A stretch of DNA of 64,000 nucleotides from an uncultured bacterium (GTDB lineage Bacteria; Eisenbacteria; RBG-16-71-46; CAIMUX01; WJJG01), in NCBI GenBank assembly GCA_964417675.1, contig CAYQJL010000282.1, positions 148,794 through 212,793 of the forward strand, read 5' to 3'. The notes under the pieces were generated by a model, which did no database searches, had not been told where the DNA came from, and was given only the letters and a program-made list of their open reading frames with translations. Within the stretch, counting starts at the first letter, position 1; the number at the start of each line of letters is the position of its first letter. Below are positions 41,912-56,883 of this stretch, one piece after another. The position numbers and the translations under genes are program-made.

Positions 41912-42094
41912 GCTCAGCCTCGCCAGATCGGGCATCCCTGCCCACGCGGAGCGGAGAACTCGCGCTATTTTGCTGATTTCCAGGGAATTAGGCTCTTCTC
42001 TGAATGTGCTCGGGCGCAAAGTAGCAAAAGGAGGTGCCGCGCGCAAGTATTATGGTGGTTTTGCACTTGGCGCGATGGGGCGAACTGAAGACAC

Positions 42095-42200
42095 TTGACC
42101 GGTGTAGGGGGGATTGGTAGCTTCTCTATCAAATTGCGTATATTCACCTATACTCTCCCCGATATCGTGGAGAGTGGGTCGGGACGGAGGAGGGAAACTC
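42095..42200. promoter_or_regulatory. divergent, comparatively AT-rich promoter region between mreB (-) and the small secreted protein gene (+)
   Basis: TTGACC at 42095-42100 has TAGCTT 17 nt downstream, with further TATATT and TATACT hexamers at 42139-42154. SD GGAGGAGGG lies 10 nt before the GTG at 42201. Calling hexamers by eye only. Confidence 0.35.
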
Positions 42201-42665
42201 GTGAAGAAGTTGCGACTGACAACCCTGGTTCTGGCCGCTGGCCTTCTCTGGCCGATGGCCGCCGGCGGGCAGGCAACCGACGCTCCCGGGCGCACCCGCG
42301 GCGTCATGTCCGGCGTGGTCAGCGACGCCTCCGGTACAGGCCTTGCCGGAGTCAGCGTGAAGATCTTCGAGGAGGGCTTCATCCTGGCTGAGACCCAGAC
42401 TGAGGCCGACGGCGGTTACCGACTGGAATTCATGTACTTACCCGATATCGATTGGTCTCTCATCGCCTGGTTCGTACCCCTCTCCGACGATCTCATTCCC
42501 GAGATCGTGATTCTGAGGGAGAGCCTCAAGTCGAAGGATAAGGAACTCTGGAGTCGCTGCTTGCCACGCATTGAACTCCAGGCGCGCGTGAAGCAAGATG
42601 TCACGCTGCTCAATGAGAGTGACAAGCTCGCTCAGATGTCCCAGCTCGATTGCATGGAGAACTAG
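42201..42665 (+). CDS. small secreted protein with carboxypeptidase-regulatory-like (CarbopepD_reg) beta-sandwich domain
   Basis: A GTG start gives (M)KKLRLTTLVLAAGLLWPMAAGGQA, a signal peptide. GVVSDASGTGLAGVSVKIFE...TEADGGYRLEF matches the CarbopepD_reg-like pattern. Confidence 0.65.
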   Translation: MKKLRLTTLVLAAGLLWPMAAGGQATDAPGRTRGVMSGVVSDASGTGLAGVSVKIFEEGFILAETQTEADGGYRLEFMYLPDIDWSLIAWFVPLSDDLIPEIVILRESLKSKDKELWSRCLPRIELQARVKQDVTLLNESDKLAQMSQLDCMEN

Positions 42666-42755
42666 CAACGTGCGGCAGGAGGCTCCGCCGGGACACCATG
42701 CCGTGGTCGACGCGCCCTGGGCGCAGCCGTTTTGAGGGAACCGGAGGGATCAGTC

Positions 42756-44333
42756 ATGAAGCGCGGACGCCTGGCGGCGGTGTCGCTCTTGTTGGTGCTC
42801 GTGGTGTGGGTCGTCAGCTGCAGCGATGACAACCCTGTTCGGCCGACCCTTGCAAGCGGCCCTCGGCCGCCAAGCTGGCTCTATGTGTCGGCCACGGCCA
42901 ATGACAGAATCACCTTGCGCTGGGACGATGTCAGCGTTCAGGAAGCCGGCTACCAGGTTGAGCGCTCACCGAGCGGGTCGGACGGATCCTGGACCGTGAT
43001 CGACTCGGTCGCCTTGGACACGGATGTCTACATGGACCGTACCGTGACCGATTCTTCGCTCTACTACTATCGCCTCCTGGCCTTCGACAACATCGGCCGA
43101 ACGGGAGACCCCACCGAGCCCGTATGGGCTCGCGCGCTGGACAACCATACGCCCACTATCCCCAGTGCACCCTTTCCGCCCAGCGACTCGACCCGCATCG
43201 AAGGACCGAGCATCACGTTGGGATGGACCTCAACCGACAGCGATGCCGGCGACACGATCGAATACGACGTGTACTTCGGCCAGTCGCAGACCGGACTCAC
43301 CAAGGTGGCCGCCGGCATCCTGGAATCATCCTACGTTCCCCCGGATGAACTCATCCTCACGCGCGCCTATTTCTGGCGCGTCGTAGCCCGCGATGACAAG
43401 GGAGCCACGGCCCTCTCGCCCATCTGGAATTTCGGAACCCGGATCGAGCAGGTCGACGTTCCCGCCGGGTACTTCTTCTATGGAGATTGCGGCCGTTTCT
43501 ATCCTGAAGAGCCCGCGCGCTTCTGCAGCGATCAGAACCCGGTGTACCTGGACGCCTTCAACATCGATCGCTTCGAGGTCTCCAATCAGCTCTATGCGCG
43601 GTTTCTGCAGTCCCTGCTCGACAGCCTCAAGTTGCGCGTCGAGGAGGGCGTTGTCATGCATCGCACCGACAACATCGTCTTCGCCGAGGTCTACCCGGAC
43701 GGTGACAGCGATTCGGGTATCGAGTTCTTCCCCCACGAGGGCCAGCGGGGCCTGTTTGTGCCGCGGCCCGGGAAGGAGAATCATCCCGCCGTGGAGGTCA
43801 GCTGGTACGGCGCCCAACGGTACGCCCAGTTCATGGGCCGGGAGCTGCCCACTCAGTATCAGTGGGAGAAAGCCGCCCGCGGTACATCCACGCTCCTGGG
43901 GGACTCCACCTTCACCATCATAGGCCCGGGCGATACGACCACAGTGACGGTCGGACTCGGATTTCCCTATCCCTGGGGCGAGGTCTTGGACAGCCACCGC
44001 TGCAACTACCGCAACAGCGGCGACCCCTTCGAATCAACCGTCGGCGTTGCAACCACGCCCGGTGGCTTCTATGACGGTTCCTCACACAGTGGCTACAGCA
44101 CCGGCAGCAATGAGAGCCCCTATGGGATCTTCGACATGGCCGGCAATGTAGCGGAATGGTGTCGTGACCAGGCATTTCCGAATGCCAATCAGAAAGTGGT
44201 CCGTGGCGGTGGCTGGAGATCGCGGGCCACCGCTTGCCTCACGTTCTGGCGGCAAGAGAGCGGAACCGACTCAACGGACAATGCCCTTGGCTTCCGCACA
44301 GTGGGAACACCCACAATGGGAGAAGAGAAGTAA
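42756..44333 (+). CDS. lipoprotein with two fibronectin type III domains and a C-terminal FGE-sulfatase (SUMF1/DUF323) domain
   Basis: MKRGRLAAVSLLLVLVVWVVSCSDD gives a lipobox VVSC. FN3-like segments (RITLRWDDV...YQVERS and ITLGWTSTD...YDVYFG) follow, then the FGE-family motifs HPAVEVSWYGAQRYAQFMG, GNVAEWCRD and VVRGGGWRS. Confidence 0.8.
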   Translation: MKRGRLAAVSLLLVLVVWVVSCSDDNPVRPTLASGPRPPSWLYVSATANDRITLRWDDVSVQEAGYQVERSPSGSDGSWTVIDSVALDTDVYMDRTVTDSSLYYYRLLAFDNIGRTGDPTEPVWARALDNHTPTIPSAPFPPSDSTRIEGPSITLGWTSTDSDAGDTIEYDVYFGQSQTGLTKVAAGILESSYVPPDELILTRAYFWRVVARDDKGATALSPIWNFGTRIEQVDVPAGYFFYGDCGRFYPEEPARFCSDQNPVYLDAFNIDRFEVSNQLYARFLQSLLDSLKLRVEEGVVMHRTDNIVFAEVYPDGDSDSGIEFFPHEGQRGLFVPRPGKENHPAVEVSWYGAQRYAQFMGRELPTQYQWEKAARGTSTLLGDSTFTIIGPGDTTTVTVGLGFPYPWGEVLDSHRCNYRNSGDPFESTVGVATTPGGFYDGSSHSGYSTGSNESPYGIFDMAGNVAEWCRDQAFPNANQKVVRGGGWRSRATACLTFWRQESGTDSTDNALGFRTVGTPTMGEEK

Positions 44334-44419
44334 CCGGCGGGGCCACCCAGGGCTTCGGTCACGATCCGACACGCGACACCCCCCCTGGAGGGCGGCCCCT
44401 TTTGAGGGAGATCCGCAGT

Positions 44420-46333
44420 ATGCCGAACATCACCTTGCCCGACCACAGCGTGCGGGAGGTTCCGGAAGGCACCTCCTTGCTGGAGGTCGCCGCCCGCATC
44501 TCCAAAGGACTTGCCAAGCGCGCCGTCGCCGCCTTGGTCGACGGCGATCTCACCGACCTGTCCGTGTGCCCCAACCGCGATGTCGAGGTCCGCTTCGTCA
44601 CCTTCGCCGACCCTGAGGGACTCGACGTCTTCCGGCATTCCTCGGCGCACCTGATGGCTGAGGCGGTGGTCGCGCTGTTCCCCGAAGCCAAGCCGACGAT
44701 CGGGCCCGTGGTCGAGGAAGGCTTCTACTACGACTTCGACCATGCCCCTTTCTCCGAGGAAGATCTCGAGCGCATCGAGCAGAAGATGCAGGCGATCGTG
44801 CGCGAGGGACGGCCGCTCGCGCGTCTCGAACTGTCACGGCAGGAGGCCCTCGAGCTCTTCAAGGGAAACCCCTACAAGGCAGAGATGATCTCCGAGATGG
44901 ATGCTGGGGAAATCATCTCGGCGTATCGGCAGGGCGACTCCTTTGTCGATCTCTGCCGCGGCCCGCACGTCCCGGACATGAATCGCATCCGGGCGTTCAA
45001 GCTTCTCAAGGTGGCCGGAGCCTACTGGCGCGGGGATTCTCAGAACCGGATGCTTCAGCGCATCTATGGCATCAGCTTCGATGATCCCAAGGAACTCCGC
45101 GCCCATCTGAAGATGCTCGAGGAGGCCAAGAAGCGCGATCACCGCAAGCTGGGCAAGGAGCTCGACCTGTTCTCCTTCCACGAGGAGGGGCAGGGATTCC
45201 CCTTCTGGCATGACAAGGGAACGATCATCTACAACGAGCTCTCCGACTACATTCGGGAGGAGTGCCGCCGACGCGGGTATACCGAGGTGCGCACGCCGAT
45301 CATCCTCAACCAGGATCTCTGGCTGCGTAGCGGGCACTGGGACCACTACGCCGAGTCGATGTACTTCTGCGAGATCGACAAGAAACCCCACGCGGTCAAA
45401 CCGATGAACTGCCCCGGCGGCCTGCTCGTCTATAAGAGCCGCATGCATTCCTATCGCGACTTGCCGGTTCGTCAGGCGGAGTTGGGACTGGTCCATCGCA
45501 ATGAGCTCTCGGGCGTGCTGCATGGGCTCTTCCGGGTGCGTGCGTTCACTCAGGATGATGCTCATGTCTTCTGCACGGAAGAGCAGCTCACCGACGAGGT
45601 CGTGAAGCTGATCGAGTTCTGTATCGACGTCTACAGAACCTTTGGCTTCCCGGATCCTGAAATCAAGCTGTCGACCAAGCCGGAGAAGTACATCGGCAGC
45701 GATGAGATCTGGGAGCTGGCCACGCGGGCGTTGCACGACGGTCTCGAACGGCTGGGACTGCCTTTCGCTGTCAATGAAGGCGACGGGGCATTTTATGGAC
45801 CCAAGATCGACTTTGACATCCGCGATTCCCTGCGACGCAGCTGGCAGTGCGGTACCGTCCAGGTCGATTTCTCGATGCCGAGCCGTTTCGACCTGACGTA
45901 TGAGGGCGCCGACGGGCAGTCCCACCGGCCGGTCATGCTCCATCGCGCCATCCTCGGCAGCCTGGAGCGCTTCATCGGCGTGCTACTCGAGCACACCGCC
46001 GCGAAGCTGCCGCTGTGGATCGCCCCGGTGCAGGTGCGAGTCATCCCCGTGACCGACGGCCATCTGCCCTATGCCGAGTCGGTCGCTGACCAGTTGCGGG
46101 CTGGCGGCCTACGCACCGAGATCGACCGGCGCAATGAATCGGTGAGCAAGAAGGTCCGCGCGGCGCAGCTCGAGCAGATCAACTACATCTTGGTCGTGGG
46201 CGACAAGGAGGTTGAGGCCGGCACCGTGAATGTACGCACGCGCGACAATGTCGTCCATGGCCCGTCCGAAGTGAGCGCATTCTTGGAGAAGCTGCACGGC
46301 GAAATCCGCACGCGCGCCCTCGCGCCCGAGTAA
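44420..46333 (+). CDS. thrS: threonine--tRNA ligase
   Basis: Trimmed to MPNITLPDHSVREVPEGTS (TGS domain), then the editing domain, the class II core (FRHSSAHLMAEAV, HRNELSGVLHGLFRVR) and an anticodon-binding domain. SD GAGGGAG lies upstream, and the ATG at 44420 was verified. Confidence 0.97.
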   Translation: MPNITLPDHSVREVPEGTSLLEVAARISKGLAKRAVAALVDGDLTDLSVCPNRDVEVRFVTFADPEGLDVFRHSSAHLMAEAVVALFPEAKPTIGPVVEEGFYYDFDHAPFSEEDLERIEQKMQAIVREGRPLARLELSRQEALELFKGNPYKAEMISEMDAGEIISAYRQGDSFVDLCRGPHVPDMNRIRAFKLLKVAGAYWRGDSQNRMLQRIYGISFDDPKELRAHLKMLEEAKKRDHRKLGKELDLFSFHEEGQGFPFWHDKGTIIYNELSDYIREECRRRGYTEVRTPIILNQDLWLRSGHWDHYAESMYFCEIDKKPHAVKPMNCPGGLLVYKSRMHSYRDLPVRQAELGLVHRNELSGVLHGLFRVRAFTQDDAHVFCTEEQLTDEVVKLIEFCIDVYRTFGFPDPEIKLSTKPEKYIGSDEIWELATRALHDGLERLGLPFAVNEGDGAFYGPKIDFDIRDSLRRSWQCGTVQVDFSMPSRFDLTYEGADGQSHRPVMLHRAILGSLERFIGVLLEHTAAKLPLWIAPVQVRVIPVTDGHLPYAESVADQLRAGGLRTEIDRRNESVSKKVRAAQLEQINYILVVGDKEVEAGTVNVRTRDNVVHGPSEVSAFLEKLHGEIRTRALAPE

Positions 46334-46372
46334 TCCAATCCCGGCTCCGTCACAGACCCCCGCCCTTGCCCC

Positions 46373-46397
46373 GCAGGATCCCATCCAGGGATCCTGC
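46373..46397 (+). terminator. perfect 10-bp stem / 5-nt loop hairpin 40 nt downstream of thrS (candidate terminator, no U-tract)
   Basis: GCAGGATCCC ATCCA GGGATCCTGC. Confidence 0.4.
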
Positions 46398-46440
46398 TCA
46401 AGGCCAGCCGGCTCGACCGATGGGGACCTCTGGACGGCTG

Positions 46441-46628
46441 ACCCGCCCGGGATGACTGCGCGGCCCGGCCGTTGGGACACCTGGACGAACAACCCGCCCA
46501 GGATGACTGCGCGGCCCGGCCGTTGGGACACCTGGACGAACAACCCGCCCGGGATGACTGCGCGGCTCGACCGTTGGGACTCCTGGACGAACAACCCACC
46601 CGGGATGACTGCGCGGCTCGACCGACTC
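46441..46628. repeat. 51-bp tandem minisatellite, about 3.6 copies
   Basis: The unit cccgcccgggatgactgcgcggcccggccgttgggacacctggacgaacaa repeats with a few substitutions per copy. It generates the spurious overlapping ORFs on both strands seen in the track. Confidence 0.85.
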
Positions 46629-46725
46629 GGCTTGATCGATGAATGCCCACCTGTCCCGAGTAGCGCTCAGATCAAGTCGCATGGGACCGTCCCCACGACG
46701 GCATGCGACTGTCTCCCTCTCCCGT

Positions 46726-46800
46726 ACCCTCCGGCACACTCCCGCGCCCTCCCGAGCCCTCCGGCGCACTCCCATGCCCTCCGGCGCACTCCCGCGCACT
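46726..46800. repeat. about 20-bp tandem repeat, about 3.5 copies
   Basis: ccctccggcacactcccgcg, ccctccggcgcactcccatg, ccctccggcgcactcccgcg. Confidence 0.7.
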
Positions 46801-46835
46801 TCACCCGCCTCGTTGCCTGGCCTGCCGCAACATGG

Positions 46836-46862
46836 CATGTGAATTGCTACAGAATTCACATG
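46836..46862. promoter_or_regulatory. perfect 10-bp inverted repeat with 7-bp spacer in an AT-rich spacer (candidate operator)
   Basis: CATGTGAATT gctacag AATTCACATG. It lies about 345 bp upstream of the HNH gene in the lowest-GC stretch of the window. Confidence 0.3.
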
Positions 46863-47207
46863 AGCACGGGCGCACAATTCATACGAGAGATGTAGTTTAG
46901 ACTTGTATCCCGATAGTGCATGTCGTAGAGTTGACTAGTTATCCTGTAATGCTCGCCTGAACGCACCAACAACTGAATCCATCGTCCGGTCGATGCTTTC
47001 TTGCTCAATCCCGTGGCGGTGCGAACTCCATAGCGGACAATCGGAAGTGTGCATCGCCACCGCCGCCGGCATCGGGAGCTGTGGCAAGGCTCACCTGGCA
47101 GGGGCGCCCGAGGAGCCGGGGCTGGGACCTCAACAGCCACGCCGTGGTTCTGAGGACCACTCCCTATCCCGGCGCAGGAACAGAAATTCCATACAAGGAG
47201 GTGGAAC

Positions 47208-48842
47208 GTGGCGCATCTCTATATGGTTCATGAATCGCAGGCCGGAATCGTCGCCGAGTCGACACGCTCTGATTCCGCCAGGCATCGTGCCTGGCGGCCG
47301 GGACCTTCGCCCGAGTCGGGAGAAACACCGTCACAAGCCGTACAGCCAAGATCGGGCCGCGCGCCACGGAAGCCTCATGCCAGGCTCTTTCGTGGGCGTC
47401 GGCACATGTCCGCAAACGAAGTGGTCGGCCATCTGCGAGAAGCCGTTCACAACATGTACAACGCGGAGATGAGCGCCTGTGTGTGGTTCAGTGAGATTCT
47501 CCGCCGGGAGCTGTATCGCACATACGGCTATGCTTCGATTCACGCCTTCGCCTCCGAGGAACTCGACTTCACTCCCAACCGAATCGCCCGCTATCTGCGG
47601 TTGATCGAGGATCTCAGGGACTTACCCCGCACCCGCAGCGCCCTCTATTCGGGCCGGATCGAGTGGACGAAGGTGCGCGAGATTGCCAAAGTGGCAAGTG
47701 CCCGCAACGAGCGGAGTTGGCTGAAGTGTGCATCCCGATGCAGCCGCCGCGAACTGGAAGCCCTGGTCAGACGCGCCAAGAGGAAGAATGACCTCGCTGC
47801 CCGCCAGAACGATCAGCAGCCCAACCTCCAGGCCCTTCCGTTGCCATCGACGCAACCCGGGACTCAAGTCGCAAGAGGAGAGCAAACACCGGCGGCGTCA
47901 ATATCCGTGGCTGGCGCCCCCGCCGGATCGCCCAGCGCCTCCGCCGGGGCTGTCGCCCCCGACGGCCCGCCCGGCGATCTCAGTGCCGCTGAGAGCAGTG
48001 TCCCCGACGGCCCGTCCGGCGATCTCGGTGCCGCTGAGAGCAGTGTCCCCGACGGATTCCTTGGTTCTGCCGACGTCTTCGGGCACGGTGAGGTACAAGG
48101 TTCTGAGGAGCTGGCTGCCGACGGACCCGTGTCGGTCCTCCTTCGCCTGCTTCCCGTGGAGGCTGCCCAGTTCGAGGCGCTGCTTGCCAATGCCAGAAAG
48201 CAAGGGCTGTTCCCACCCAACACGACGAAGGCCCAGATCGTCTTGCAGGCACTGCATGCGTTCGTCGCATCGGCCTCGCGGCCGCGGTCGATCGGAACCC
48301 ACGCCCCCGCCGTCGATGAACGCACCACAGGGACCGTGACACCCGATGCGTTCTCCCCGCCTGAAGATGACGGCATCCAGTCTTCGGATGACAACCCTGG
48401 CCGCGTGCCGAACCGAACCGACTCTCTCCCGAGCCCCGGGAGTCCCTTGCCCCGGGGCACAGGATCAACTCCTTATCAAATAGTCATTTACAAGTGCGAA
48501 GCGTGCCAGAAAGCGACGGTCCAGACTCAGTTGGGCCCTCGACGAGTGGGCCGCCCTGTTCTCGAAGCGGCCCACTGTGATGCCGTCCTGATCAAACCCG
48601 GGAGCCGGAATCGCTCATCTATACCTCCCTCGGTACGGAGGAAGGTCATGGTACGCGACGGACACCGATGCAGAGCTAGGGGATGCCAGAATACGCAGTT
48701 CCTTGAGGTTCACCACATCGTCCCCCGGGACCGGGGTGGATCGAACCACCCTGACAACCTTGTCGTGCTCTGTAGCATCTGCCATCGGCTGTGGCATGAG
48801 AAGAACCTCGACGAGCGGTTTCTGAAGCTGACCACGCAATAG
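47208..48842 (+). CDS. DUF222-like N-terminal domain protein with C-terminal HNH endonuclease
   Basis: GTG start with a strong SD AAGGAGG 6 nt upstream. The C-terminal HNH motif is RCRARGCQNTQFLEVHHIVPRDRGGSNHPDNLVVLCSICHRLWH. The N-terminal helical region (ILRRELYRTYGYASIHAFASEEL...RIARYLRLIEDLRDLP) resembles the DUF222 domain that typically precedes HNH in this family. An internal 45-bp x2.2 tandem repeat sits at 47958-48055. Confidence 0.8.
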   Translation: MAHLYMVHESQAGIVAESTRSDSARHRAWRPGPSPESGETPSQAVQPRSGRAPRKPHARLFRGRRHMSANEVVGHLREAVHNMYNAEMSACVWFSEILRRELYRTYGYASIHAFASEELDFTPNRIARYLRLIEDLRDLPRTRSALYSGRIEWTKVREIAKVASARNERSWLKCASRCSRRELEALVRRAKRKNDLAARQNDQQPNLQALPLPSTQPGTQVARGEQTPAASISVAGAPAGSPSASAGAVAPDGPPGDLSAAESSVPDGPSGDLGAAESSVPDGFLGSADVFGHGEVQGSEELAADGPVSVLLRLLPVEAAQFEALLANARKQGLFPPNTTKAQIVLQALHAFVASASRPRSIGTHAPAVDERTTGTVTPDAFSPPEDDGIQSSDDNPGRVPNRTDSLPSPGSPLPRGTGSTPYQIVIYKCEACQKATVQTQLGPRRVGRPVLEAAHCDAVLIKPGSRNRSSIPPSVRRKVMVRDGHRCRARGCQNTQFLEVHHIVPRDRGGSNHPDNLVVLCSICHRLWHEKNLDERFLKLTTQ

Positions 48843-48871
48843 CGTGGCCTTCGCCAGTCATCGCGCTACAT

Positions 48872-48947
48872 CATCACCTGGGACAAGCGGCATCACCTGG
48901 GACAGGCGGCATCATCTGGGACAGGCGGCATCACCTGGGACAAGCCG
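48872..48947. repeat. 19-bp x4 tandem repeat immediately downstream of the HNH gene
   Basis: catcacctgggacaagcgg, catcacctgggacaggcgg, catcatctgggacaggcgg, catcacctgggacaagccg. A further 16-bp x2.3 repeat gccgccccaggatgat lies at 49064-49104. Confidence 0.8.
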
Positions 48948-49254
48948 CCTGAGTAGGCATTACACCGGATCGATCGGGGCCTTCACGCATCGCTGTGGAT
49001 TGCTCACATTTGGATCTCCGCGGACCGCCGCCACCCGGGCGGGTCCGCGACACTCGGGTATTGCCGCCCCAGGATGATGCCGCCCCAGGATGATGCCGCC
49101 ACCCCCTCGGGTGTCGTCTGTCCTGGGTGGTACCGTCGTCGACTCGTGCGGTGGCCCTGGCTGGTTGGGGAACGTGCATCCGTTCGTGATAGGGGAGCTG
49201 ACCCGAGATAGCTAATGCTGGACGGATGCAATATCCAACGGTAGGGTTTGTCCC

Positions 49255-49830
49255 ATGAAACACCACGACGATGGCAATTCCATCTTGGAAGCTGGAGTCG
49301 GCCACCGGTCCTCTTCCCGCGGCCATGTGCCGGTCACCGCGCTGTCGGGACAGCGCGAGCCTGCAATCGACGTGCACAGAAGAGATGCAAGACCGATCCT
49401 CGTCCCGGACCTGGAGGCATTGTCGTTTCGGAACCAGGCGTGCTCCCCTGTGAGTGCGGCGCGGCGCATCGAACGCACCGGCGAATGGCGCAAGGGCCTG
49501 GTCCGGCCGACTCCCATTGGACACCTCGGACACAATGCGATGCGCTCAGGGCTTGTGCTGTTTGCGCGGTGTCACGCTATCCGTCATCGCCACGGCCGCT
49601 GGGACTCTGGAGCCCAGATCCTGGTGACGCCGAAGGACACTGCGGCCATGCTTCCCCAAGCCACTGACCAACCAGTTGGTTCCTTCAAAGATCCTCCGCC
49701 GCCAGCCCGGCAGAGAAGTTGTCTCGATCCGACCCCAGGAAGGGCCACCAATCCCGGCCAAGGCCCTCCCTATCGGTCTGACAACCTGGGCTTCATCCAC
49801 CGTCAGGCAGGCCAGGCGGAGCTGTCATGA
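49255..49830 (+). CDS. hypothetical protein (weak call)
   Basis: 191-aa ORF whose stop overlaps the glycosyltransferase start by ATGA. There is no recognisable domain. The Arg/His/Pro-rich composition and mixed third-codon positions make it a doubtful gene. Confidence 0.25.
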   Translation: MKHHDDGNSILEAGVGHRSSSRGHVPVTALSGQREPAIDVHRRDARPILVPDLEALSFRNQACSPVSAARRIERTGEWRKGLVRPTPIGHLGHNAMRSGLVLFARCHAIRHRHGRWDSGAQILVTPKDTAAMLPQATDQPVGSFKDPPPPARQRSCLDPTPGRATNPGQGPPYRSDNLGFIHRQAGQAELS

Positions 49831-51308
49831 GTGATGCGGAGACGTCCGGGACCCAGAGTACGTGGTCCCCGGAAGGTGGGCCCGGTTCGTGGGATCGGGA
49901 TGTTCGCTCGGATCGGCCGCGAGCGATCCTTTGCTTCGCCTCTTCAGACTTCGAGGCCCCGCAGTGGGTCAATGCGCAGCACCTCATGTGGCGCCTTTCC
50001 CAGCAACGCCGGGTGCTGTATGTCAATAGTCTCGGATTGCGCACCCCCCGCTTTGATCGGCGCGATCTTTCGAAGGTTCTCCGCCGACTACGGGGATTGG
50101 CACGACTCACCTACCAGCCGGACGCAAGCCACGACCTCCATGTATTTTCTCCGGTCAGCCTTCCGCCCAGACCCGAGCCCCGCTGGCAGGCTGCTTCGGC
50201 GTGGCTGCTTCTGTTTCGTCTGCGCCGCGCCCTGCATCAGCTGCACATGTCAGACCCCATCGTATGGACCTTCCTGCCCAGCGCTGAACCGATTCTTGCC
50301 AGCCTGGATGCTCGCTCGGTCGTCTATCACTGCGTCGATGCCTACGATGCAAATCCGGATGTCGATCAGGCCCTGATCCGGGCCCTCGAGGAAAAGGTTC
50401 TCAGTCGCGCCGACCGGGTCATCGCCACATCCCGGCCACTCCACGAGCGCCTGCGGGTGCGACATCGCCGCGTGCATCTCATGCCAAACGTTGCTGACTT
50501 GAGTGCGTATCCTCCTCCAGGGTGCCCGCCGCCCCAGCCGGGTGATCTAGCACAGGTGCCGGCCCCAAGACTCATCTACGTGGGAAACCTGGCGGCATAC
50601 AAGTGTGACATCCCCGTGCTTGAAGCAACGGCCCGCGCACACCCCAGCTGGTCTTGGATCTTTGTTGGGCCGGCAGGCCTTGGAGAGCGGAAGACACCGC
50701 TCGAGACGCTTCGTCGACTGCCGAACGTCCATCTACTGGGCCCCCGACGGAGGGAAGATCTGGCCGCGTACATTCATCACTGCGATGTAGGTCTCATTCC
50801 GTTCGTGCGCAGTTCCTCTACGAGGCACAGCTTTCCCATGAAGTTCTTCGAGTACCTGGCCTGCGGCAAGCCCGTGGTCTGCTCGAATCTGGCCAGCCTT
50901 CAGGAACACCTGCGACCGGGAATCGCCTATGCGTACGGTCCCGACGAAGGGCTCCCCTCCTTGGCGGAGTGCATCGAGGCCGCCCTGTTTCTGGGTGAGA
51001 CTGCGCGTGCCCAGGCAGGTCGCGGGGCTCTGGGCGCACGCGGAGCCGAGGGGACCGGCGGAGCCGAGGGGACCGGCGGAGCCGAAGGGACCGGCGGAGC
51101 CGGCAGGGCCGAGGATCCCGGGGAGGATGCCATGCTGCCCGAAGGCGCCGGTGCGCTCATGAACGGACCCGCTCTGATGGGGACAGGTCCGCTTGTGGCT
51201 CCTGCGGGCGTGGAGACACCGTGTTCTCGACGGGTTATGGCGGAAGCTCACAGCTGGGATCGACGAATGGCCGAAATCGCAGATCTAGTTGCTCAGATCG
51301 AGCGGTGA
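49827..51308 (+). CDS. glycosyltransferase family 1 (GT4-like) protein
   Basis: The C-terminal GT-B half (LIYVGNLAAYKCDIPVLE...IPFVRSSSTRHSFPMKFFEYLACGKPVV) carries the E-x7-E-like sugar-donor motif region. An 18-bp x3.5 in-frame repeat at 51044-51115 encodes GAEGTG repeats. Confidence 0.78.
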   Translation: MSDAETSGTQSTWSPEGGPGSWDRDVRSDRPRAILCFASSDFEAPQWVNAQHLMWRLSQQRRVLYVNSLGLRTPRFDRRDLSKVLRRLRGLARLTYQPDASHDLHVFSPVSLPPRPEPRWQAASAWLLLFRLRRALHQLHMSDPIVWTFLPSAEPILASLDARSVVYHCVDAYDANPDVDQALIRALEEKVLSRADRVIATSRPLHERLRVRHRRVHLMPNVADLSAYPPPGCPPPQPGDLAQVPAPRLIYVGNLAAYKCDIPVLEATARAHPSWSWIFVGPAGLGERKTPLETLRRLPNVHLLGPRRREDLAAYIHHCDVGLIPFVRSSSTRHSFPMKFFEYLACGKPVVCSNLASLQEHLRPGIAYAYGPDEGLPSLAECIEAALFLGETARAQAGRGALGARGAEGTGGAEGTGGAEGTGGAGRAEDPGEDAMLPEGAGALMNGPALMGTGPLVAPAGVETPCSRRVMAEAHSWDRRMAEIADLVAQIER

Positions 51309-51473
51309 TGCGGCCCACCTCGCAACGCGCCTGCCGGAACGAGCTGCCGGGAGGGGGTTGGGGGATTGGGGGGAAGAGAGATCTGAACCTCGGGAGGTTT
51401 GGCACCAGAGGCGCCATACCGCTGGGCACTCCTGGGCAGGCAGGGAGAGCTGAAGTCGGAGAGCAGGAAGTGG

Positions 51474-51522
51474 GCGCAAGAAAATTCCCGCTGGACCCGA
51501 AGGCCCAGCGGGAAAATTCCAG
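51474..51522 (-). terminator. rho-independent terminator of the PPC-domain protein gene
   Basis: On the minus strand the stem CCCGCUGG / CCAGCGGG (8 bp, 10-nt loop) is followed by AAUUUUCUU. It lies 17 nt after the stop at 51539 and is the only terminator in the window with a clear U-tract. Confidence 0.7.
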
Positions 51523-51538
51523 CAATACACCGATACGA

Positions 51539-52099
51539 CTACTTGAACATACCCTTGATGGTACCCCAAGTCGGCGACTCGGTGGGCGAGCCACCCTGGT
51601 CACCATACATGTCGATCGTGTAGTAGCCGCAGTCGCCGCCGTAACCGTCAACCACGATGTAGTACGTGTGGCCGAGGTTCAGCTGGAGACCCATGATTTC
51701 GGAAACCCAACCGGGGCACTCGTCGTCGTTGCAGGCGAACGGGGCACCAGGGGTAACTTCATCTTCGTACAGATACAGCTTGGTGTCATACGTCGAGGCA
51801 CCACAGAGTGTGATGTCAACCAGGCCGTCACCCGTCGGGGTGTACTGGTAAACGACGTCAGGCGAGGTCGAGCCGGTGTAAGGGCAAACCTCATCGTAGT
51901 CATCCAGGAACCCGCAGGTGTCGCCATCGTCCGCGAAAGGCAGCTCCATGATGACAACTGCATTCGCAACGTCTTCACCACCGACGCGCTCGCCACTGTA
52001 GACGGGCGTGCCAGGCACGTAGTCAATCGGCCACTTTTCAGCATTGGCCGTCGCGCCAAACACGAGACCCAACACCGCTAGAAGCGCCAAGAACCTCAT
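51539..52099 (-). CDS. small Cys-rich secreted protein with PPC (bacterial pre-peptidase C-terminal)-like domain
   Basis: Trimmed to MRFLALLAVLGLVFGATANA, a signal peptide. DVVYQYTPTGDGLVDITL...YDTKLYLYED matches the PPC-domain pattern (D.DLYLYD). A perfect SD AAGGAGG lies 7 nt before the verified ATG. Codon usage is T-ending-rich, unlike its neighbours. Confidence 0.72.
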   Translation of the reverse strand: MRFLALLAVLGLVFGATANAEKWPIDYVPGTPVYSGERVGGEDVANAVVIMELPFADDGDTCGFLDDYDEVCPYTGSTSPDVVYQYTPTGDGLVDITLCGASTYDTKLYLYEDEVTPGAPFACNDDECPGWVSEIMGLQLNLGHTYYIVVDGYGGDCGYYTIDMYGDQGGSPTESPTWGTIKGMFK

Positions 52100-52613
52100 T
52101 TGAACCTCCTTACAAGATGCACATTGGACATACCTGGGCTTCTGGAGTGGCACGCACCAGAAACCACCAGATGCTCCATGCGGAGGATTGTCACACTCCC
52201 GCTGCGGGTGGGTTCGTCCGCAATCGGACCTGCTCCAATCAGAGATAATTCTAGCACAACAGCGCTGTTCATGCGAATCCGTTTATTGGACACACGGAAG
52301 TTCCTGCCAACCGATGGTTCTTCTCGTCCATTGCAGACCCCTCCCCACGCGACCATCGCCCGTAACAGTATTTATGGCAATGCGTTACAGGACAGCGCCC
52401 CTCGGTCTTGTTTCGCGCTCGCTTCGCGGGGACGAACTCGAAGGCCGAGTGAGGGACACCGATCGAGGCCTCCAGACCCACGACCCAATCCAAGAGACCA
52501 CTTGCCTGCCAGACAATCAGCCGTCATCAGCGATGATCACTTCGATCGGTGCCGCCTTGGCCAGACAGGTTCTCGCATCGTCACCAGCCCTGGGCAGACA
52601 GGTTCTTGCATCG

Positions 52614-53984
52614 TCACCAGCCTTGAGGCACCAATTCGAAGTCGCCGTAACCATTTCGATCCACGAACACGAACCTCCGGCCAAGACGATCGTAGAACCA
52701 CACCTCGAGGGTGCGGCCGTAGTAGCTGTGGCGATCTCGAGTGATCTCGTCCGGAGCCCCATACGTGATGTAGATCTCACCGCGGTCGGTCTGCCAGCCG
52801 GGCCGCATGACACCGAAACTTCGGTTGGCGAAGTTCACACGCTGGATGAATTCCTCTTTGAACTCGTTGACCTCGCTCTCCGGGGTGGGGTCCCGCTTCT
52901 TCCAGAACTCGCGCCAGAGAGCCCACCGTTCCTCTGGAGGGGCGGCGCGCAGGGGATCGATCTCATCGTCATGGGCGATGAGGTTGAGCACATCAATCGA
53001 CTCGCGCAAGAAGCGCGCCAAGGCTTCCGGCGACTCTGCCAGAAGGCTGACCGACGTCTGCGCCTCAAGGGTGTACTCACTCACTCGAGCGTTAACGTCC
53101 AGGAGATAGGCATCCAGCCATAAGTCCGCGACTGGGATCGGCCAGCACAGGGACGACAAGTCTCGTTCGCCACGGACACCCGCTTCTCCCTCTCGGACCA
53201 TTCGTCCGCCAGAGTCGGTAAGCCTCCACCTCAGTTCTATCTCAGGATACTCAAGCCCCTGATGGTACAACTCGGCATACACGCACAGCGTGTCTCTGGG
53301 CTCTGCGAACTCGCGGTGCAGGAGTCCGTCCTGCCGCAGAGACGTCAGACCCGCGGTGTGGCCACACTCCCCGAGCAGTACCTCCGAGAGGAAGGGCCGG
53401 CCAGGGACTCGAATGGGCAGCTTGCCCCCCACGCATACCTGGCCTTCCTGGCCGGAGTTGGGCTCCGAAACCCGCACGCTGAACCCATACCGCCCGGGTG
53501 TCAGCCGGAAGACAATGTCTTTCTCGAAGCGGGCACCCCGGCGGTGAATCTCGCCCCGATCGGGGATCTGTAGGCTCACGGGCCAAAGGTCCCCGGCCAC
53601 CTGACGGTCTTCCTGGAAGGCATGCACGATGATTTCGAATTCGGCCCGATACCCGCTCTCCCCTTTGCGAAAGCAGAGCTCAGTGTAGGGAACCGTCACG
53701 TGAAGCAGCGCACATGTGCTGTCATCCTGAACCGCGGCACTGACCTCAGCGCGGAAGCGGGGACGCTGGAGGTTCTCCGCCCGGGCGGGAGCATCGTGAC
53801 GGCATGGCGCCGCCATGGCGGGCCACGAGAAGCAAGCAGCCGAAGCCAAGCAGGCAGCCCAAACCAGCCCAATTGGCCATGCCGAGCGGCGGAGTCCGCG
53901 GCAACTCGGACGTAAGCTCTGGAGCTCCCCCAGCTGGTTGGAGGCACGCGCCGATGTCCTGGTTCGCCTTGGCATGATGCCCAT
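52614..53984 (-). CDS. GWxTD-domain protein
   Basis: A signal peptide (IGLVWAACLASAAC) and a C-terminal GWQTDRGEIYITYGAPDEI...WFYD core match the GWxTD family as I recall it. Confidence 0.75.
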   Translation of the reverse strand: MGIMPRRTRTSARASNQLGELQSLRPSCRGLRRSAWPIGLVWAACLASAACFSWPAMAAPCRHDAPARAENLQRPRFRAEVSAAVQDDSTCALLHVTVPYTELCFRKGESGYRAEFEIIVHAFQEDRQVAGDLWPVSLQIPDRGEIHRRGARFEKDIVFRLTPGRYGFSVRVSEPNSGQEGQVCVGGKLPIRVPGRPFLSEVLLGECGHTAGLTSLRQDGLLHREFAEPRDTLCVYAELYHQGLEYPEIELRWRLTDSGGRMVREGEAGVRGERDLSSLCWPIPVADLWLDAYLLDVNARVSEYTLEAQTSVSLLAESPEALARFLRESIDVLNLIAHDDEIDPLRAAPPEERWALWREFWKKRDPTPESEVNEFKEEFIQRVNFANRSFGVMRPGWQTDRGEIYITYGAPDEITRDRHSYYGRTLEVWFYDRLGRRFVFVDRNGYGDFELVPQGW

Positions 53985-54157
53985 ACTCTCTCGTGATCGG
54001 CGGCCAACGCACGCCTCTCGCCGGCCGACCGCAGCCGCATTCGGATGTGGCCGGTCCGGAAGGCTTCGGTGGGACCCACCGGAGCGTCCCCTCCGAGGGG
54101 ACCCACCGGAGTGACCTTCGGCGGTGCCGCCCTCCGCCCGGGAAGGTGCCGGATCGC

Positions 54158-55252
54158 CTACTCGTCGCCGAAACGCGTGCCGACCATGCGGGCCACGTCG
54201 ACGATCTCGGACTCGGGATCAACGAGTCTCAAGGACTCCACGGCCTCAGCGATCGGGACTTGCGTGATCTCCGTCCCTCTCAGTGAAACCATGACATCCT
54301 GCATACCCAAGGCGGCACACTTTGCTGCATGAACCCCGTAGCGTGTCCCCAGGATGCGATCATGGGCCGTTGGGCTTCCGCCCCGCTGCAGGTGACCCAG
54401 AACGGTAACGCGCACCTCATCGTCGAGTTGCCGCTCGAGCTCCGCGGCCAGCCAGTGTCCGATCCCCCCCAGCCGGACGGCATCGGTCGAGTCCTCCACC
54501 CGTTTGGCCACCACCAGATCGCCGTCCTGCGTCTTGGCACCCTCCGCCACCACAATCAGGGTGTAGTCGCGGCCCTGGAATTTGCGGTCTTTGATCGCGC
54601 TCACGACGCCGTTTACGGTGAAAGGGATCTCCGGCACGAGAATGATGTCGCCTCCGCCCGCCAATCCGGCCTCGAGGGCGATCCAGCCGGCGTAGCGCCC
54701 CATGACCTCGAGAACCATGACCCGGCCGTGGGATTCGGCAGTAGTGTGGAGTTTGTCGAGGGCCTCGCATGCTGTTGTGACGGCTGTATCGAACCCGAAG
54801 GTCACGTCGGTCGCCGCAAGATCGTTGTCGATTGTCTTGGGGATTCCGATGACCGGCATGCCACGCTTGCCCAGATCCCTGGCAATCGAAAGACTCCCAT
54901 CCCCACCAATGACCACGAGCACATCGAGCCCGTAACGCTCGAAGGTCCGCATCGCCTCCTCGGAACGATCCTCGTACTCGATCTTGCCGTTCACCTTCAC
55001 AGGAACGCGGAAGGGATTGTCCTTGTTCGAAGAACCGAGAATCGTTCCGCCGCGATGCAGGACGCCGGACACCGCATCCGAATCCAACCGAGTCATACGA
55101 TCCCGAATCAGCCCGGCAAATCCGTTGAGAAACCCCACGACGTGCATGTCGTGACGAAAGGAGGCCGTCTTGACCAATGCTCGCAGTACAGCGTTCAGCC
55201 CCGGGCAATCACCCCCACCGGTGAGCACCCCCACTCGTTTGACCTTGCCCAT
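54158..55252 (-). CDS. pfkA: 6-phosphofructokinase
   Basis: MGKVKRVGVLTGGGDCPGLNAVLRA, IGGDGSLSIA and the PKTIDNDL fructose-6-P site. A strong SD AAGGAGGA lies upstream. Confidence 0.93.
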   Translation of the reverse strand: MGKVKRVGVLTGGGDCPGLNAVLRALVKTASFRHDMHVVGFLNGFAGLIRDRMTRLDSDAVSGVLHRGGTILGSSNKDNPFRVPVKVNGKIEYEDRSEEAMRTFERYGLDVLVVIGGDGSLSIARDLGKRGMPVIGIPKTIDNDLAATDVTFGFDTAVTTACEALDKLHTTAESHGRVMVLEVMGRYAGWIALEAGLAGGGDIILVPEIPFTVNGVVSAIKDRKFQGRDYTLIVVAEGAKTQDGDLVVAKRVEDSTDAVRLGGIGHWLAAELERQLDDEVRVTVLGHLQRGGSPTAHDRILGTRYGVHAAKCAALGMQDVMVSLRGTEITQVPIAEAVESLRLVDPESEIVDVARMVGTRFGDE

Positions 55253-55491
55253 TCGTCGCCTCCTCCTTGAGACTGTGCCTCTGATCCTACGCGGACATGG
55301 CGCAAATGCGCCACCCCGGGGTCAACGATCCGCCGCCCGGGTGGGATGCCACGCTCAGGATGAATCCTAGCCGATGGATGGCTGAAGAGCTAGAACGGCT
55401 AGATGCTCACAATCAACCTCGGCTTTCCGCGTGCCGATCTAAAGGGAGCCGGCGGTTCTGGCTCTCCGTCGGGGGGAAGGAGTACACCAGA

Positions 55492-56883
55492 ATGAAACGC
55501 GTGAGACCCTCGCGCAAGCAGCCACGAACCGCGGCTTCAAGGTCTCGGATCCCACGGTCGCCTGCAGGGACGGCCACACCCTCGAAGCGTCAGAACCTTG
55601 GCACGGAGCAAGCACCTTCCAGGGGCAAGAGAGGCTCAGAGGAGGGAACGCTGTCCAGGGAGCGCAGGCGCGCCGCGGAGCAAGCTCCCGCCAAGACTCC
55701 TTCCCGGAAGCGCACGCCGAAGGAAAGCCAGAAGCCGTCCAGGAAGGTTTCCGGCAAGAGTGGGCCGGCCAAGAGCGGTCGGCCTGCCAGTGGGGTGCCT
55801 GCGGACCACAAGGGGCGTGCCGGCAGCAAGGGCGCTGCACGGCAGGCCGATCGCGCCGGTCGGGCCGGGGACGCCACTTCGCTCTCCCAGAACGCGTCGC
55901 AGCGCAAGCGGGCCGCCAGGAAGGCACGCGGCAGGCGGCAACCGCTAGTCCGACCCGAGACCGAAACACTCCTTCACCTGGAAGACCTCTTGAAGAGCCG
56001 CATTGTCGGCAAGGACGAGGCGATCCAACGCGTGGCCGATTCGATTCGGATCCGCAGAACCAATCTTGACTTCCGACCGCAGCGCCCAGACGGCAGCTTC
56101 CTCTTGGTGGGTCCTCCAGGTGTCGGGAAGTCCGAATTCGCGCATGCCGTGGCCGAAGTTCTGTTGGGAAATGAGAGTCTCGTCGTTGACCTCGACATGG
56201 CAGACTACACCGAGGAAGAGGATGTGGAGGATCTCCTGGTCACGGCCTATCCCGGTGTCGAGGGGCTGCTGGTCGAGGGCGCTCTCACCACGCCGATGCG
56301 CAAGAATCCCCGCTCCGTGATTCTCTTCCACGGCATCGAGCGGGCCCATCCGGCCGTGCTGCGCCTCATGATGCACGTACTCGAACGGGGTGTGATCTCG
56401 GACGCTCAGGGCGAAGTTGTGTTCAACGAAGCCATCGTCTTCGCAACGACGCGCCTGCTGTTCGAAGACGGCGAGGTGGTGCAGCAGATCGGTTTCAAGC
56501 GTTCGACAGCCCCTCACGAGGACAGGGTGCGCAGGATGCTGGAAGATCAGTTCTCACCGGAGTTGGTCAGCGCCTTCAACGAAGTGCTCTTCTTCAAGGC
56601 GCTGACTCCGGAGGATGTCCGTCTCATCGCGCGGTTCAAGGTCAGCACTGTCCTTGAGCGGCTCAAGAAGCAGAAGCGCGGCGTGGTTATCAGCGACCGC
56701 GTATGGGACACATTCATCTGGGAGGACGAGGTCAGAAGGACAGGGGCCCGCTATCTGAATCGGGCTCTTGAGGAACGGTTGTTCACGCCGCTGTCGAAGT
56801 ACCTGCTTGAGCACTCCACTGCCCGGAGCATTCTCGTGGACGTTCGCGATCGCAAGTTGGTGATCCGCCACGACGAGTCATGA
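55492..56883 (+). CDS. standalone ClpA/ClpB D2-like AAA+ domain protein with a degenerate Walker B and a basic N-terminal tail of about 200 aa
   Basis: SD AAGGAG lies 10 nt before the ATG at 55492 (verified). The first roughly 200 residues are K/R/S/P/A-rich low complexity. After that, LEDLLKSRIVGKDEAIQRVADSIRIRR...FLLVGPPGVGKSEFAHAVAEVL (Walker A intact) aligns with the Clp D2 domain. The Walker-B position reads SVILFHGIERAHPAV, where Clp has SVILLDEVEKAHPDV. Confidence 0.8.
   Translation: MKRVRPSRKQPRTAASRSRIPRSPAGTATPSKRQNLGTEQAPSRGKRGSEEGTLSRERRRAAEQAPAKTPSRKRTPKESQKPSRKVSGKSGPAKSGRPASGVPADHKGRAGSKGAARQADRAGRAGDATSLSQNASQRKRAARKARGRRQPLVRPETETLLHLEDLLKSRIVGKDEAIQRVADSIRIRRTNLDFRPQRPDGSFLLVGPPGVGKSEFAHAVAEVLLGNESLVVDLDMADYTEEEDVEDLLVTAYPGVEGLLVEGALTTPMRKNPRSVILFHGIERAHPAVLRLMMHVLERGVISDAQGEVVFNEAIVFATTRLLFEDGEVVQQIGFKRSTAPHEDRVRRMLEDQFSPELVSAFNEVLFFKALTPEDVRLIARFKVSTVLERLKKQKRGVVISDRVWDTFIWEDEVRRTGARYLNRALEERLFTPLSKYLLEHSTARSILVDVRDRKLVIRHDES

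Follow-up and report, generated by a model that had tools for sequence, protein, structure and literature searches.

A variable interval beside thrS in an uncultured Eisenbacteria lineage: a probably eroded envelope-glycan cassette with a solitary HNH nuclease gene

The 64-kb stretch of DNA analysed here (the window, to which all coordinates without a label refer) belongs to an uncultured member of the Eisenbacteria. Between the threonyl-tRNA synthetase gene (thrS) and a gene for a GWxTD-domain protein on the opposite strand, it holds a segment (46334-52613) with a solitary HNH nuclease gene set among tandem repeats, an open reading frame (ORF191) that is probably a decayed methyltransferase remnant, a glycosyltransferase (GT) gene and, on the minus strand, a gene for a small secreted protein (Table 1). 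An earlier note had described the segment as a compositionally atypical island, horizontally acquired or otherwise fast-evolving, that replaces the usual thrS-infC-rpmI-rplT continuation. The comparative analysis reported here, in which the loci and contigs compared with the window carry L labels (L001, L086, L092 and so on), points instead to the probable remodelling of a variable envelope-glycan cassette.

Table 1. Features of the thrS-GWxTD interval and its flanks, in window coordinates (TRF, Tandem Repeats Finder; SD, Shine-Dalgarno sequence)
Feature	Position	Strand	Evidence and remarks
thrS (threonyl-tRNA synthetase)	44420-46333	+	Pfam TGS/tRNA_SAD/tRNA-synt_2b/HGTP_anticodon; conserved gene bordering the variable interval on the left
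Perfect hairpin, 10-bp arms, 5-nt loop, no U-tract	46373-46397	+	Inverted-repeat scan; 40 nt past the thrS stop
51-bp x3.6 array, 95% matches, non-coding	46441-46624		TRF, repeat search
10/20/30-bp periodic array (CTCCCGCGCA-like)	46719-46800		TRF, repeat search
Inverted repeat CATGTGAATT-N7-AATTCACATG	46836-46862		Inside GC-poor spacer 46801-47100 (GC 0.547), upstream of the HNH gene
Solitary HNH nuclease gene, 544 aa	47208-48842	+	Pfam HNH E 1e-9; SD AAGGAGGT at 47195-47202
Composite inverted structure after the HNH stop	48872-49104		Starts 30 nt past the HNH stop
19-mer x3.9 array	48872-48945		TRF, repeat search
16-mer x2.4 array	49062-49104		TRF, repeat search
ORF191, probable decayed methyltransferase remnant	49255-49830	+	tblastn E 1.5e-6, alignment
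GT-B glycosyltransferase (Pfam Glycos_transf_1 / CAZy GT4-type)	49827-51308	+	Pfam; 493-aa ORF
Intrinsic terminator behind the secreted gene: stem of 13 bp with 9 GC pairs, followed by TTTTCTT	51485-51514	-	As described earlier
Small secreted protein, 186 aa, signal peptide, PPC/collagen-binding-like beta-sandwich	51539-52099	-	Model and homologs
514-bp GC-poor spacer	52100-52630		Promoter-like site 52277-52248 (-); ends in the array at the GWxTD 3' end
33-bp x2.3 array	52554-52630		TRF; 3' end of the GWxTD gene
GWxTD-domain protein	52614-53984	-	Pfam and NCBIfam; conserved right flank, then pfkA and AAA_2 ATPase; synteny in all relatives

The thrS-GWxTD interval in Eisenbacteria

The window was compared with the contigs of six relatives, whose ThrS proteins are 86, 83, 83, 78, 77 and 70% identical to its own. 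The gene order on the left of the interval is common to all six and runs from RNase G, through RodA-PBP2-MreD-MreC-MreB, a CarboxypepD_reg protein (which L094 lacks and which was not recognised in L093) and an fn3/FGE-sulfatase protein, to thrS. The order on the right is equally shared, with the GWxTD and phosphofructokinase (PFK) genes on the minus strand followed by an AAA_2 ATPase, a PNP_UDP protein and ABC permeases, PFK being missing in L094. What lies between these flanks is a variable set of genes that comprises a MurJ/Wzx flippase and from one to three GT4 glycosyltransferases, joined in some cases by a methyltransferase. A MurJ-GT fusion and a 187-aa gene make up this set in L086, a Polysacc_synt gene and two GT4 genes in L088-L091, MurJ, GT4, Methyltransf_11 and GT genes in L092, and MurJ, GT4 and GT genes in L093; in L094 the set is inverted and consists of MurJ and three GTs. 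In every relative the flippase, and any extra GT, begins at or overlaps the thrS stop codon. The gene content of the interval differs in each lineage examined, which bears out the description of the region as fast-evolving.

The relatives also dispose of the notion that something customary has been displaced from this position. Searches by tblastn with Escherichia coli IF3, L35 and L20 recovered infC, rpmI and rplT directly after thrS in the Firmicutes control loci L011, L012 and L021, but found none of them within 10 kb of thrS in the six relatives and none in the window. Since this operon follows thrS in no Eisenbacteria relative (0 of 6), there was no usual continuation to be replaced.

Colinearity at the DNA level with the nearest relative, L086, is broken solely between window positions 46262 and 49923, and no MurJ or Polysacc_synt remnant was found in any frame of the segment. 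The C-terminus of ThrS is intact in the alignment with its relatives, and hence the left break falls directly after the thrS stop codon. The genome-specific part of the segment spans about 2.9 kb (~46334-49254), contains the HNH gene and non-coding DNA, and is absent from all six relatives; such absence, as would be expected of an island, does not extend to the glycosyltransferase gene, the secreted gene or the methyltransferase remnant.

The genes to the right of this part belong to the cassette of the relatives. The glycosyltransferase, which the earlier note had correctly assigned to family 1, shows GT-B domains above the Pfam thresholds (Glyco_trans_1_4, 56.6 bits for a cut-off of 27; Glycos_transf_1, 41.6 for 26.4), an N-terminal Glyco_transf_4 match just below its cut-off (26.1 for 28.5) and a sub-threshold, TuaH-like match in NCBIfam. 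By tblastn it is the ortholog of the last glycosyltransferase of the cassette in four of the six relatives (L086, L092, L093 and L094; 54-60% identity), and it carries an in-frame 18-bp x3.5 array in a loop that is also repeat-expanded in the L086 ortholog. ORF191, immediately upstream, has no Pfam or NCBIfam match, but its first ~57 residues align with the S-adenosylmethionine-binding N-terminus of the Methyltransf_11 protein of L092, which is encoded directly upstream of the orthologous glycosyltransferase; the same ATGA overlap with the glycosyltransferase start is kept in ORF191. Because the remainder of ORF191 is unrecognisable, it is probably a decayed remnant of the cassette methyltransferase gene. 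The Joint Genome Institute (JGI) annotation of identical DNA (L001, 3955-5429) splits the glycosyltransferase gene into a 180-aa ORF in another frame and a 156-aa C-terminal piece, and Logan calls the 493-aa ORF, the version that Pfam supports.

Nor is the segment compositionally foreign: taking the 64-kb window's own range as reference, it is typical in GC, in GC3 (GC at third codon positions) and in its use of tetranucleotides. GC content is 0.624-0.642 in the six 1-kb windows between 46 and 52 kb (0.644 being the mean of the window), and the lowest value of any 1-kb window, 0.584, is found at 52001-53000. GC3 amounts to 0.692 in the HNH gene, 0.674 in the glycosyltransferase gene and, in the secreted ORF, 0.707 over its listed extent or 0.727 when counted from the ATG at 52099. 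Among the window's 45 long ORFs the mean is 0.737 with a standard deviation of 0.052, and several distant genes lie at 0.67-0.68. The HNH and secreted genes are less than one standard deviation from that mean, and the glycosyltransferase gene about 1.2. Tetranucleotide distances in 3-kb windows over 46-50 kb (z = -1.9 to +0.3) are among the most typical of the window, and a mild excess (z 1.4-2.2) is limited to 50.5-54.5 kb, a stretch that includes the GWxTD gene, which is conserved in every relative, and the secreted gene, which the nearest relative also has. GC, GC3 and tetranucleotide distance thus place 46-50 kb inside the window's own range, and neither the alleged atypical composition nor a GC3 visibly less saturated than in the flanking core genes can be sustained as a mark of foreign origin. 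The GC-poor stretch at 46801-47100 is real, but it shares the place of lowest in the window with the 300-bp windows at 41901 and 52101.

The small secreted protein is likewise a retained element, 85.6% identical to the product of the 187-aa gene at the same position in L086, two genomes that have 86% identity in ThrS. Its gene shows the textbook Shine-Dalgarno sequence (GGAGG, 6 nt before the ATG), the T-rich rho-independent terminator and the T-ending codons (22.6% T at third positions, as compared with 11-17% in neighbouring genes) that had been described for it. The assignment to the PPC domain fared less evenly, as the protein matches no Pfam family even at E<=10; the fold, however, agrees, and two of its 99 homologs carry a PF04151 match. 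According to an AlphaFold model built from a 40-sequence alignment (pLDDT 78.6), the protein is a PPC/collagen-binding beta-sandwich, and the top Foldseek matches of the model (5sv5, the PPC domain of a Bacillus collagenase, at E 1.7e-4; the ColG/ColH collagen-binding domains; 4hpk, 1nqj) have probability 1.0 and TM scores (target) of 0.6-0.8, accompanied by a weak profile match to the PPC domain 2luw. While sharing their beta-sandwich fold, the protein departs from PPC (PF04151) and clostridial collagenase collagen-binding domains in being a stand-alone secreted product of 186 aa instead of the C-terminal appendage of a protease, and in its additional conserved cysteines and the WGxIK-like tail at its C-terminus. 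The C-terminus (51539-51570) ends in ...SPTWGTIKGMFK; the family consensus conserves a C-terminal G..K motif, which could serve as a signal for sorting or anchoring.

As regards the flanking genes, the ThrS of the window is 70-74% identical to proteins named Candidatus Eisenbacteria in NCBI and up to 86% identical to those of metagenomic relatives. Outside the Eisenbacteria, the most similar named matches listed have 52-62% identity and include Clostridia/Bacillota and Deltaproteobacteria, as well as DPANN archaea (Nanoarchaeota, Woesearchaeota and Micrarchaeota). On the other side, the AAA_2/ClpB-D2 ATPase (55297-56883) has a basic, low-complexity N-terminal extension of ~230 aa and a length of 528 aa, for 349-470 aa in the orthologs of the relatives.

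The HNH nuclease gene

The product of the solitary gene in the genome-specific part matches the HNH family (PF01844) with 38.8 bits for a cut-off of 21.4 (E 1e-9), and the residues C488, C493, H502, H503, N517, C525, H526 and H530, catalytic or zinc-binding, are invariant in the family alignment. Its AlphaFold model has a confident N-terminal helical domain (residues ~56-200) that resembles both the ParB/Noc helix-turn-helix (HTH) and DUF222, followed by a disordered linker, a helical hairpin, and a zinc-ribbon with a McrA-type HNH domain (~424-544); the linker carries an in-frame 45-bp x2.2 array (47957-48055). Foldseek relates the HNH module to EcoKMcrA and ScoMcrA and the N-terminal domain, with a weak E-value and TM scores of 0.68-0.75, to ParB/Noc DNA-binding domains. 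The gene had been called a DUF222-HNH endonuclease preceded by a strong Shine-Dalgarno sequence. The latter is present, and the HNH half of the name holds above threshold, but DUF222 (PF02720) attains 21.5 bits for a gathering score of 24.4, over profile positions 24-114 of 306, and the protein is hence termed DUF222-like and not a member of that family. DUF222 and HTH_ParB are also sub-threshold in its close homologs, and two distant ones (P0006 and P0007) pass DUF222.

The family to which this protein belongs is large, with 224 representatives at E<=1e-30 and 1,926 at E<=1e-10 in an exhaustive HMMER search; a word-indexed search had returned seven matches, and the impression of rarity that it gave was discarded. 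The best named homologs are 'HNH endonuclease' proteins of Candidatus Eisenbacteria, and two are named McrA by JGI. In other Eisenbacteria the homologs are solitary and occupy four contexts that differ from one another (L085, L095/96, L097 and L098), and one homolog lies in a metagenome-assembled genome (GCA_964585945.1) whose thrS precedes an intact MurJ-GT-methyltransferase-GT set. No conserved flanking DNA was found across the homolog loci, and the 64-kb window contains neither a second copy of the HNH gene nor a repeat of any part of the segment. An exact 35-mer of the gene had no match in a collection of metagenome contigs that evidently lacks this population. Full-length relatives were found in neither viral contigs nor plasmids, relatives at the level of the HNH domain appearing in viral contigs only, and PADLOC, PHROGs and NCBIfam returned just HNH-domain-level matches. 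The gene is free-standing, and the occurrence of homologs at different loci is suggestive only as evidence for a homing element.

The closest known kind of gene is the REP13E12/DUF222-HNH type of Mycobacterium and other Actinobacteria (PF02720 and PF01844), which combines in the same way an N-terminal helical DUF222-type domain with a C-terminal zinc-binding HNH domain and also takes the form of solitary genes at varying loci. The gene described here departs from that type in its sub-threshold DUF222 match, confined to the first third of the model, in its long disordered linker and extra zinc-ribbon, in its presence as one copy in 64 kb of a genome from another phylum, and in having no repeated DNA element around it. 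In M. tuberculosis, REP13E12 is considered to be a repeated or mobile-like element of unknown mechanism (PMC10589994, citing Gordon et al. 1999). For the HNH core, the best structure and sequence matches are instead the McrA-type nucleases (EcoKMcrA, 6ghc; ScoMcrA, 5zmm), but the N-termini of McrA proteins read modification, whereas that of the present protein is ParB/Noc-HTH-like.

Tandem repeats and non-coding DNA

The tandem repeats reported earlier for this segment were all recovered. The hairpin after thrS is perfect, TRF finds both the 51-bp x3.6 minisatellite and the 20-bp repeat, and the 19-bp and 16-bp arrays are present beyond the HNH gene. The 'perfect 10-bp palindrome' of the GC-poor stretch is in fact an inverted repeat whose 10-nt arms are separated by a spacer of 7 nt, and thus not contiguous; the window has 106 contiguous palindromes of at least 10 bp, none of them at 46801-47100. 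The inverted repeat is a possible operator or promoter region. The 51-bp array is non-coding; a 147-aa ORF that runs across it has no family match and an atypical excess of GC at second over first codon positions (GC2 > GC1). Downstream of the HNH gene, the 19-mer and 16-mer units are related in opposite orientation (p ~0.003) with a GC palindrome between the two arrays, and as RNA the whole structure folds into a single long hairpin (z = -4.7). Three further arrays came to light: the HNH gene contains one of 45 bp x2.2, the GT gene one of 18 bp x3.5, and the GWxTD gene has one of 33 bp x2.3 at its 3' end. No Rfam family matched anywhere in the window.

Arrays are not peculiar to the segment. 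Counted as merged arrays with a period of at least 9 and a score of at least 50, they number 25 in the 64-kb window (0.39/kb) and reach 0.54/kb in L086, for 0.073/kb in 51 pooled loci of other phyla; L088, L090 and L093 have none at the same thresholds. The seven arrays in the 6.3 kb of the flagged region represent ~3.5 times the density elsewhere in the window (Poisson p ~0.013), a concentration that can be ascribed mainly to the large proportion of non-coding DNA there. Since the high density is common to L086, it constitutes a lineage-wide trait, and minisatellites that occur throughout the window at about five times the density of the control loci cannot serve as the mark of an island. An array is found in most of the window's long intergenic spacers. 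The arrays within genes (47957-48055, 51040-51102, 18455-18608, 30977-31047 and 37462-37551, and 7554-7615 in L086) preserve the frame, their periods (45, 18, 48, 21 and 24 bp) all being divisible by three. In the Logan assembly of SRR2989655, contigs break in the 51-mer and 19-mer arrays (~46521 and 48904-48926); the arrays limit short-read assembly and their copy numbers are therefore provisional.

Minisatellites are well known in bacteria as variable-number tandem repeat (VNTR) loci, for instance the mycobacterial interspersed repetitive units (MIRU-VNTR) of M. tuberculosis. The arrays of the window resemble such loci in their 10-51-bp units, in being mostly intergenic and in staying in frame when inside genes, but they are much denser, lineage-specific, and made of units unrelated to one another. 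A dispersed family of related minisatellites was considered and rejected, because unit-versus-unit scores equal those of the shuffled null. So was a core motif (CCCRGGATGA) common to the three flanking arrays: it is exact in the 51-mer and the 16-mer, and shuffled controls leave only the 19-mer/16-mer relation.

Origin of the present arrangement

Starting from the conserved synteny, the missing flippase, the uniform composition, the domain architecture of the HNH protein and the differing contexts of its homologs, we consider it probable that the interval is a variable envelope-glycan cassette that has lost its flippase and most of a methyltransferase gene and now houses a solitary, probably selfish HNH gene in repeat-rich spacers. 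The thrS-GWxTD interval would be the site of such a cassette across the Eisenbacteria, beside the mreBCD-PBP2-RodA cell-wall cluster, normally holding a flippase of the MOP superfamily (MurJ/Wzx type), GT4 glycosyltransferases and sometimes a methyltransferase. Parsimony over the six relatives suggests the direction of the event. The cassette appears to have been eroded from its thrS-proximal side, with the loss of the flippase and any extra glycosyltransferase and the degeneration of the methyltransferase, while the terminal glycosyltransferase, the PPC-fold secreted gene and the right flank would have been retained. The gap would have been filled by 2.9 kb of host-like DNA, composed of the gene for a stand-alone, DNA-binding HNH nuclease and non-coding spacers. 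The HNH gene may well be a selfish, occasionally relocating gene of the REP13E12/DUF222 kind, encoding an active nuclease, whose arrival presumably accompanied or followed the deletion of the flippase, and the minisatellites would be local products of a genome-wide tendency to tandem duplication in this lineage. The interval recalls the Wzx-dependent surface-polysaccharide cassettes (O-antigen or exopolysaccharide) in that conserved genes (thrS at one end, GWxTD-pfkA at the other) enclose a flippase, GT4 and methyltransferase content that varies between lineages. It departs from them in that the flippase is missing here, the methyltransferase is degenerate and the interval contains no genes for sugar-nucleotide synthesis. 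Given the first two of these differences, the cassette may be partly defunct.

Several observations weigh against this reconstruction. The lineage of L088 and L090 has a different cassette, so that the ancestral state rests on just four of the six relatives, and insertion and deletion may have come in either order. The absence of the flippase and the single copy of the HNH gene hold for 64 kb of the genome only. The window yielded no target-site duplication, terminal repeat or second copy that would mark a move of the HNH gene; the different contexts of its homologs could stem from old paralogs instead of mobility, and, given the host-like composition, a transfer would have to be ancient or to have started from a close relative. 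Lastly, arrays are some 4-8 times denser beside HNH family genes than in other non-coding DNA, here and elsewhere, an enrichment that passive accumulation does not explain.

The alternatives must be set against the same evidence. It is extremely improbable that the thrS-HNH-GT order is an assembly artefact created by mis-joins at tandem repeats. Although short-read Logan contigs stop inside arrays (L002 begins at 48904 and L084 covers roughly 46521-48926), JGI contig MLSed_10000029 (L001; sample 3300001533, 117.6 kb) crosses 41539-55262 colinearly at 99.985% identity, with just two mismatches, both in pfkA. The arrangement is thus backed by a separate assembly. In addition, the Logan contig of SRR2989655 (L002) is 100% identical to the window over 48904-54934, and identical HNH and ThrS proteins sit together on one 213,652-bp NCBI contig. 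The view that all of 46334-52613 is a horizontally acquired island, displacing infC-rpmI-rplT from its place after thrS, is very unlikely and can be regarded as largely refuted. The interval is certainly rich in repeats (7 of the 25 arrays of the window) and in non-coding DNA, it overlaps the 1-kb window of lowest GC, the GC3 of its HNH, GT and secreted genes is below that of thrS and mreB, and the HNH segment is not present in relatives. Yet GC3 and tetranucleotide usage are those of the window, the operon allegedly displaced is wanting in every relative, and the methyltransferase remnant, the glycosyltransferase and the secreted gene are syntenic with their counterparts. The earlier note had itself held that uniform composition together with conserved synteny would refute an island; composition is indeed uniform, and synteny is conserved in the right half, though not at 46334-49254. 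Hallmarks of integration are also lacking. No tRNA gene was found near the segment (the single one of the window is at 58375), no integrase or transposase domain among the window ORFs (Pfam, NCBIfam) and no convincing direct repeat at the segment borders. The att-like duplication sought at the flanks came down to an 11-nt direct repeat, CCAATCCCGGC, at 46335-46345 and 49748-49758 (2 nt past the thrS stop and 78 nt upstream of the GT start, respectively). It was rejected as a target-site duplication, being compatible with chance and placing the apparently ancestral methyltransferase remnant inside the insert.

Two further proposals concern the HNH gene itself. Defence genes are often located in the same variable regions as surface-polysaccharide loci, and the protein might accordingly be a host defence nuclease of type IV (McrA-like) in a hotspot of both kinds, and not a selfish element. 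Its HNH domain is closest by fold and sequence to EcoKMcrA and ScoMcrA, PADLOC reports a weak match to mREase_IV (E 2e-6, HNH domain only) and two homologs bear the name McrA; all of these matches, however, lie in an HNH core of ~60 residues. Against such a role, the protein, whose N-terminus is ParB-like HTH/DUF222-like, showed no domain of the SRA or SBD type or similar that would read modification, partner genes and a system-level PADLOC match are wanting, and relatives occur in viral contigs at domain level only and in no plasmid. We deem a defence role quite unlikely. A somewhat better, if still low, chance can be granted to the idea that the gene and its flanking arrays form one unit, whether a mobile or homing element with the arrays as ends or immunity sites, or a nuclease that drives duplication in cis. 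Arrays lie on both sides of the gene, with the inverted relation and long hairpin of the 19-mer/16-mer structure on one of them, and the N-terminal domain resembles the ParB/Noc DNA-binding domain, HTH_ParB being sub-threshold in homologs. Arrays also adjoin HNH family genes elsewhere (L097, 7568-7934; L098, 7569-7995 and 9710-9840; L180, 668-728; in the window, 48872-48945), starting 30 nt past the HNH stop in both the window and L098 and spanning the stop in L180. At 14 other family loci, HNH-adjacent non-coding DNA has 1.39 arrays/kb, for 0.17/kb in other non-coding DNA (binomial p ~0.006), with a crude coding mask behind the test. Nonetheless, five of the six near arrays in other loci come from L097 and L098, about two thirds of the family loci have no adjacent array, flanking DNA is not conserved, and array units show no relation from one locus to another or, the 19/16 pair excepted, inside a locus (the similarity of the 51-mer and the 16-mer is marginal, p 0.07), in a genome that has arrays in most long spacers anyway. 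From a small sample dominated by three loci, a causal link between the HNH family and its adjacent minisatellites, as binding or immunity sites or through breaks in cis that seed duplications, is a small possibility. Should it hold, it would help to explain the ~5-fold excess of minisatellites over other bacteria in some Eisenbacteria lineages (this one, L086, L097 and L098).

Under the preferred reading of an eroded cassette, the segment is otherwise largely ordinary, and the leads that remain are the lineage-specific richness in minisatellites and its possible tie to the HNH family. The thrS-infC-rpmI-rplT order, learned from Proteobacteria and Firmicutes, fails in the Eisenbacteria, and the island call built on it was wrong. 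More generally, the thrS-GWxTD interval, lying by the genes of the Rod complex, would be a hotspot of envelope-glycan turnover in this uncultured phylum. One Eisenbacteria lineage has probably lost the flippase at this hotspot and now has there a solitary gene for a predicted DNA-binding HNH nuclease, which adds to what is known of the phylum.

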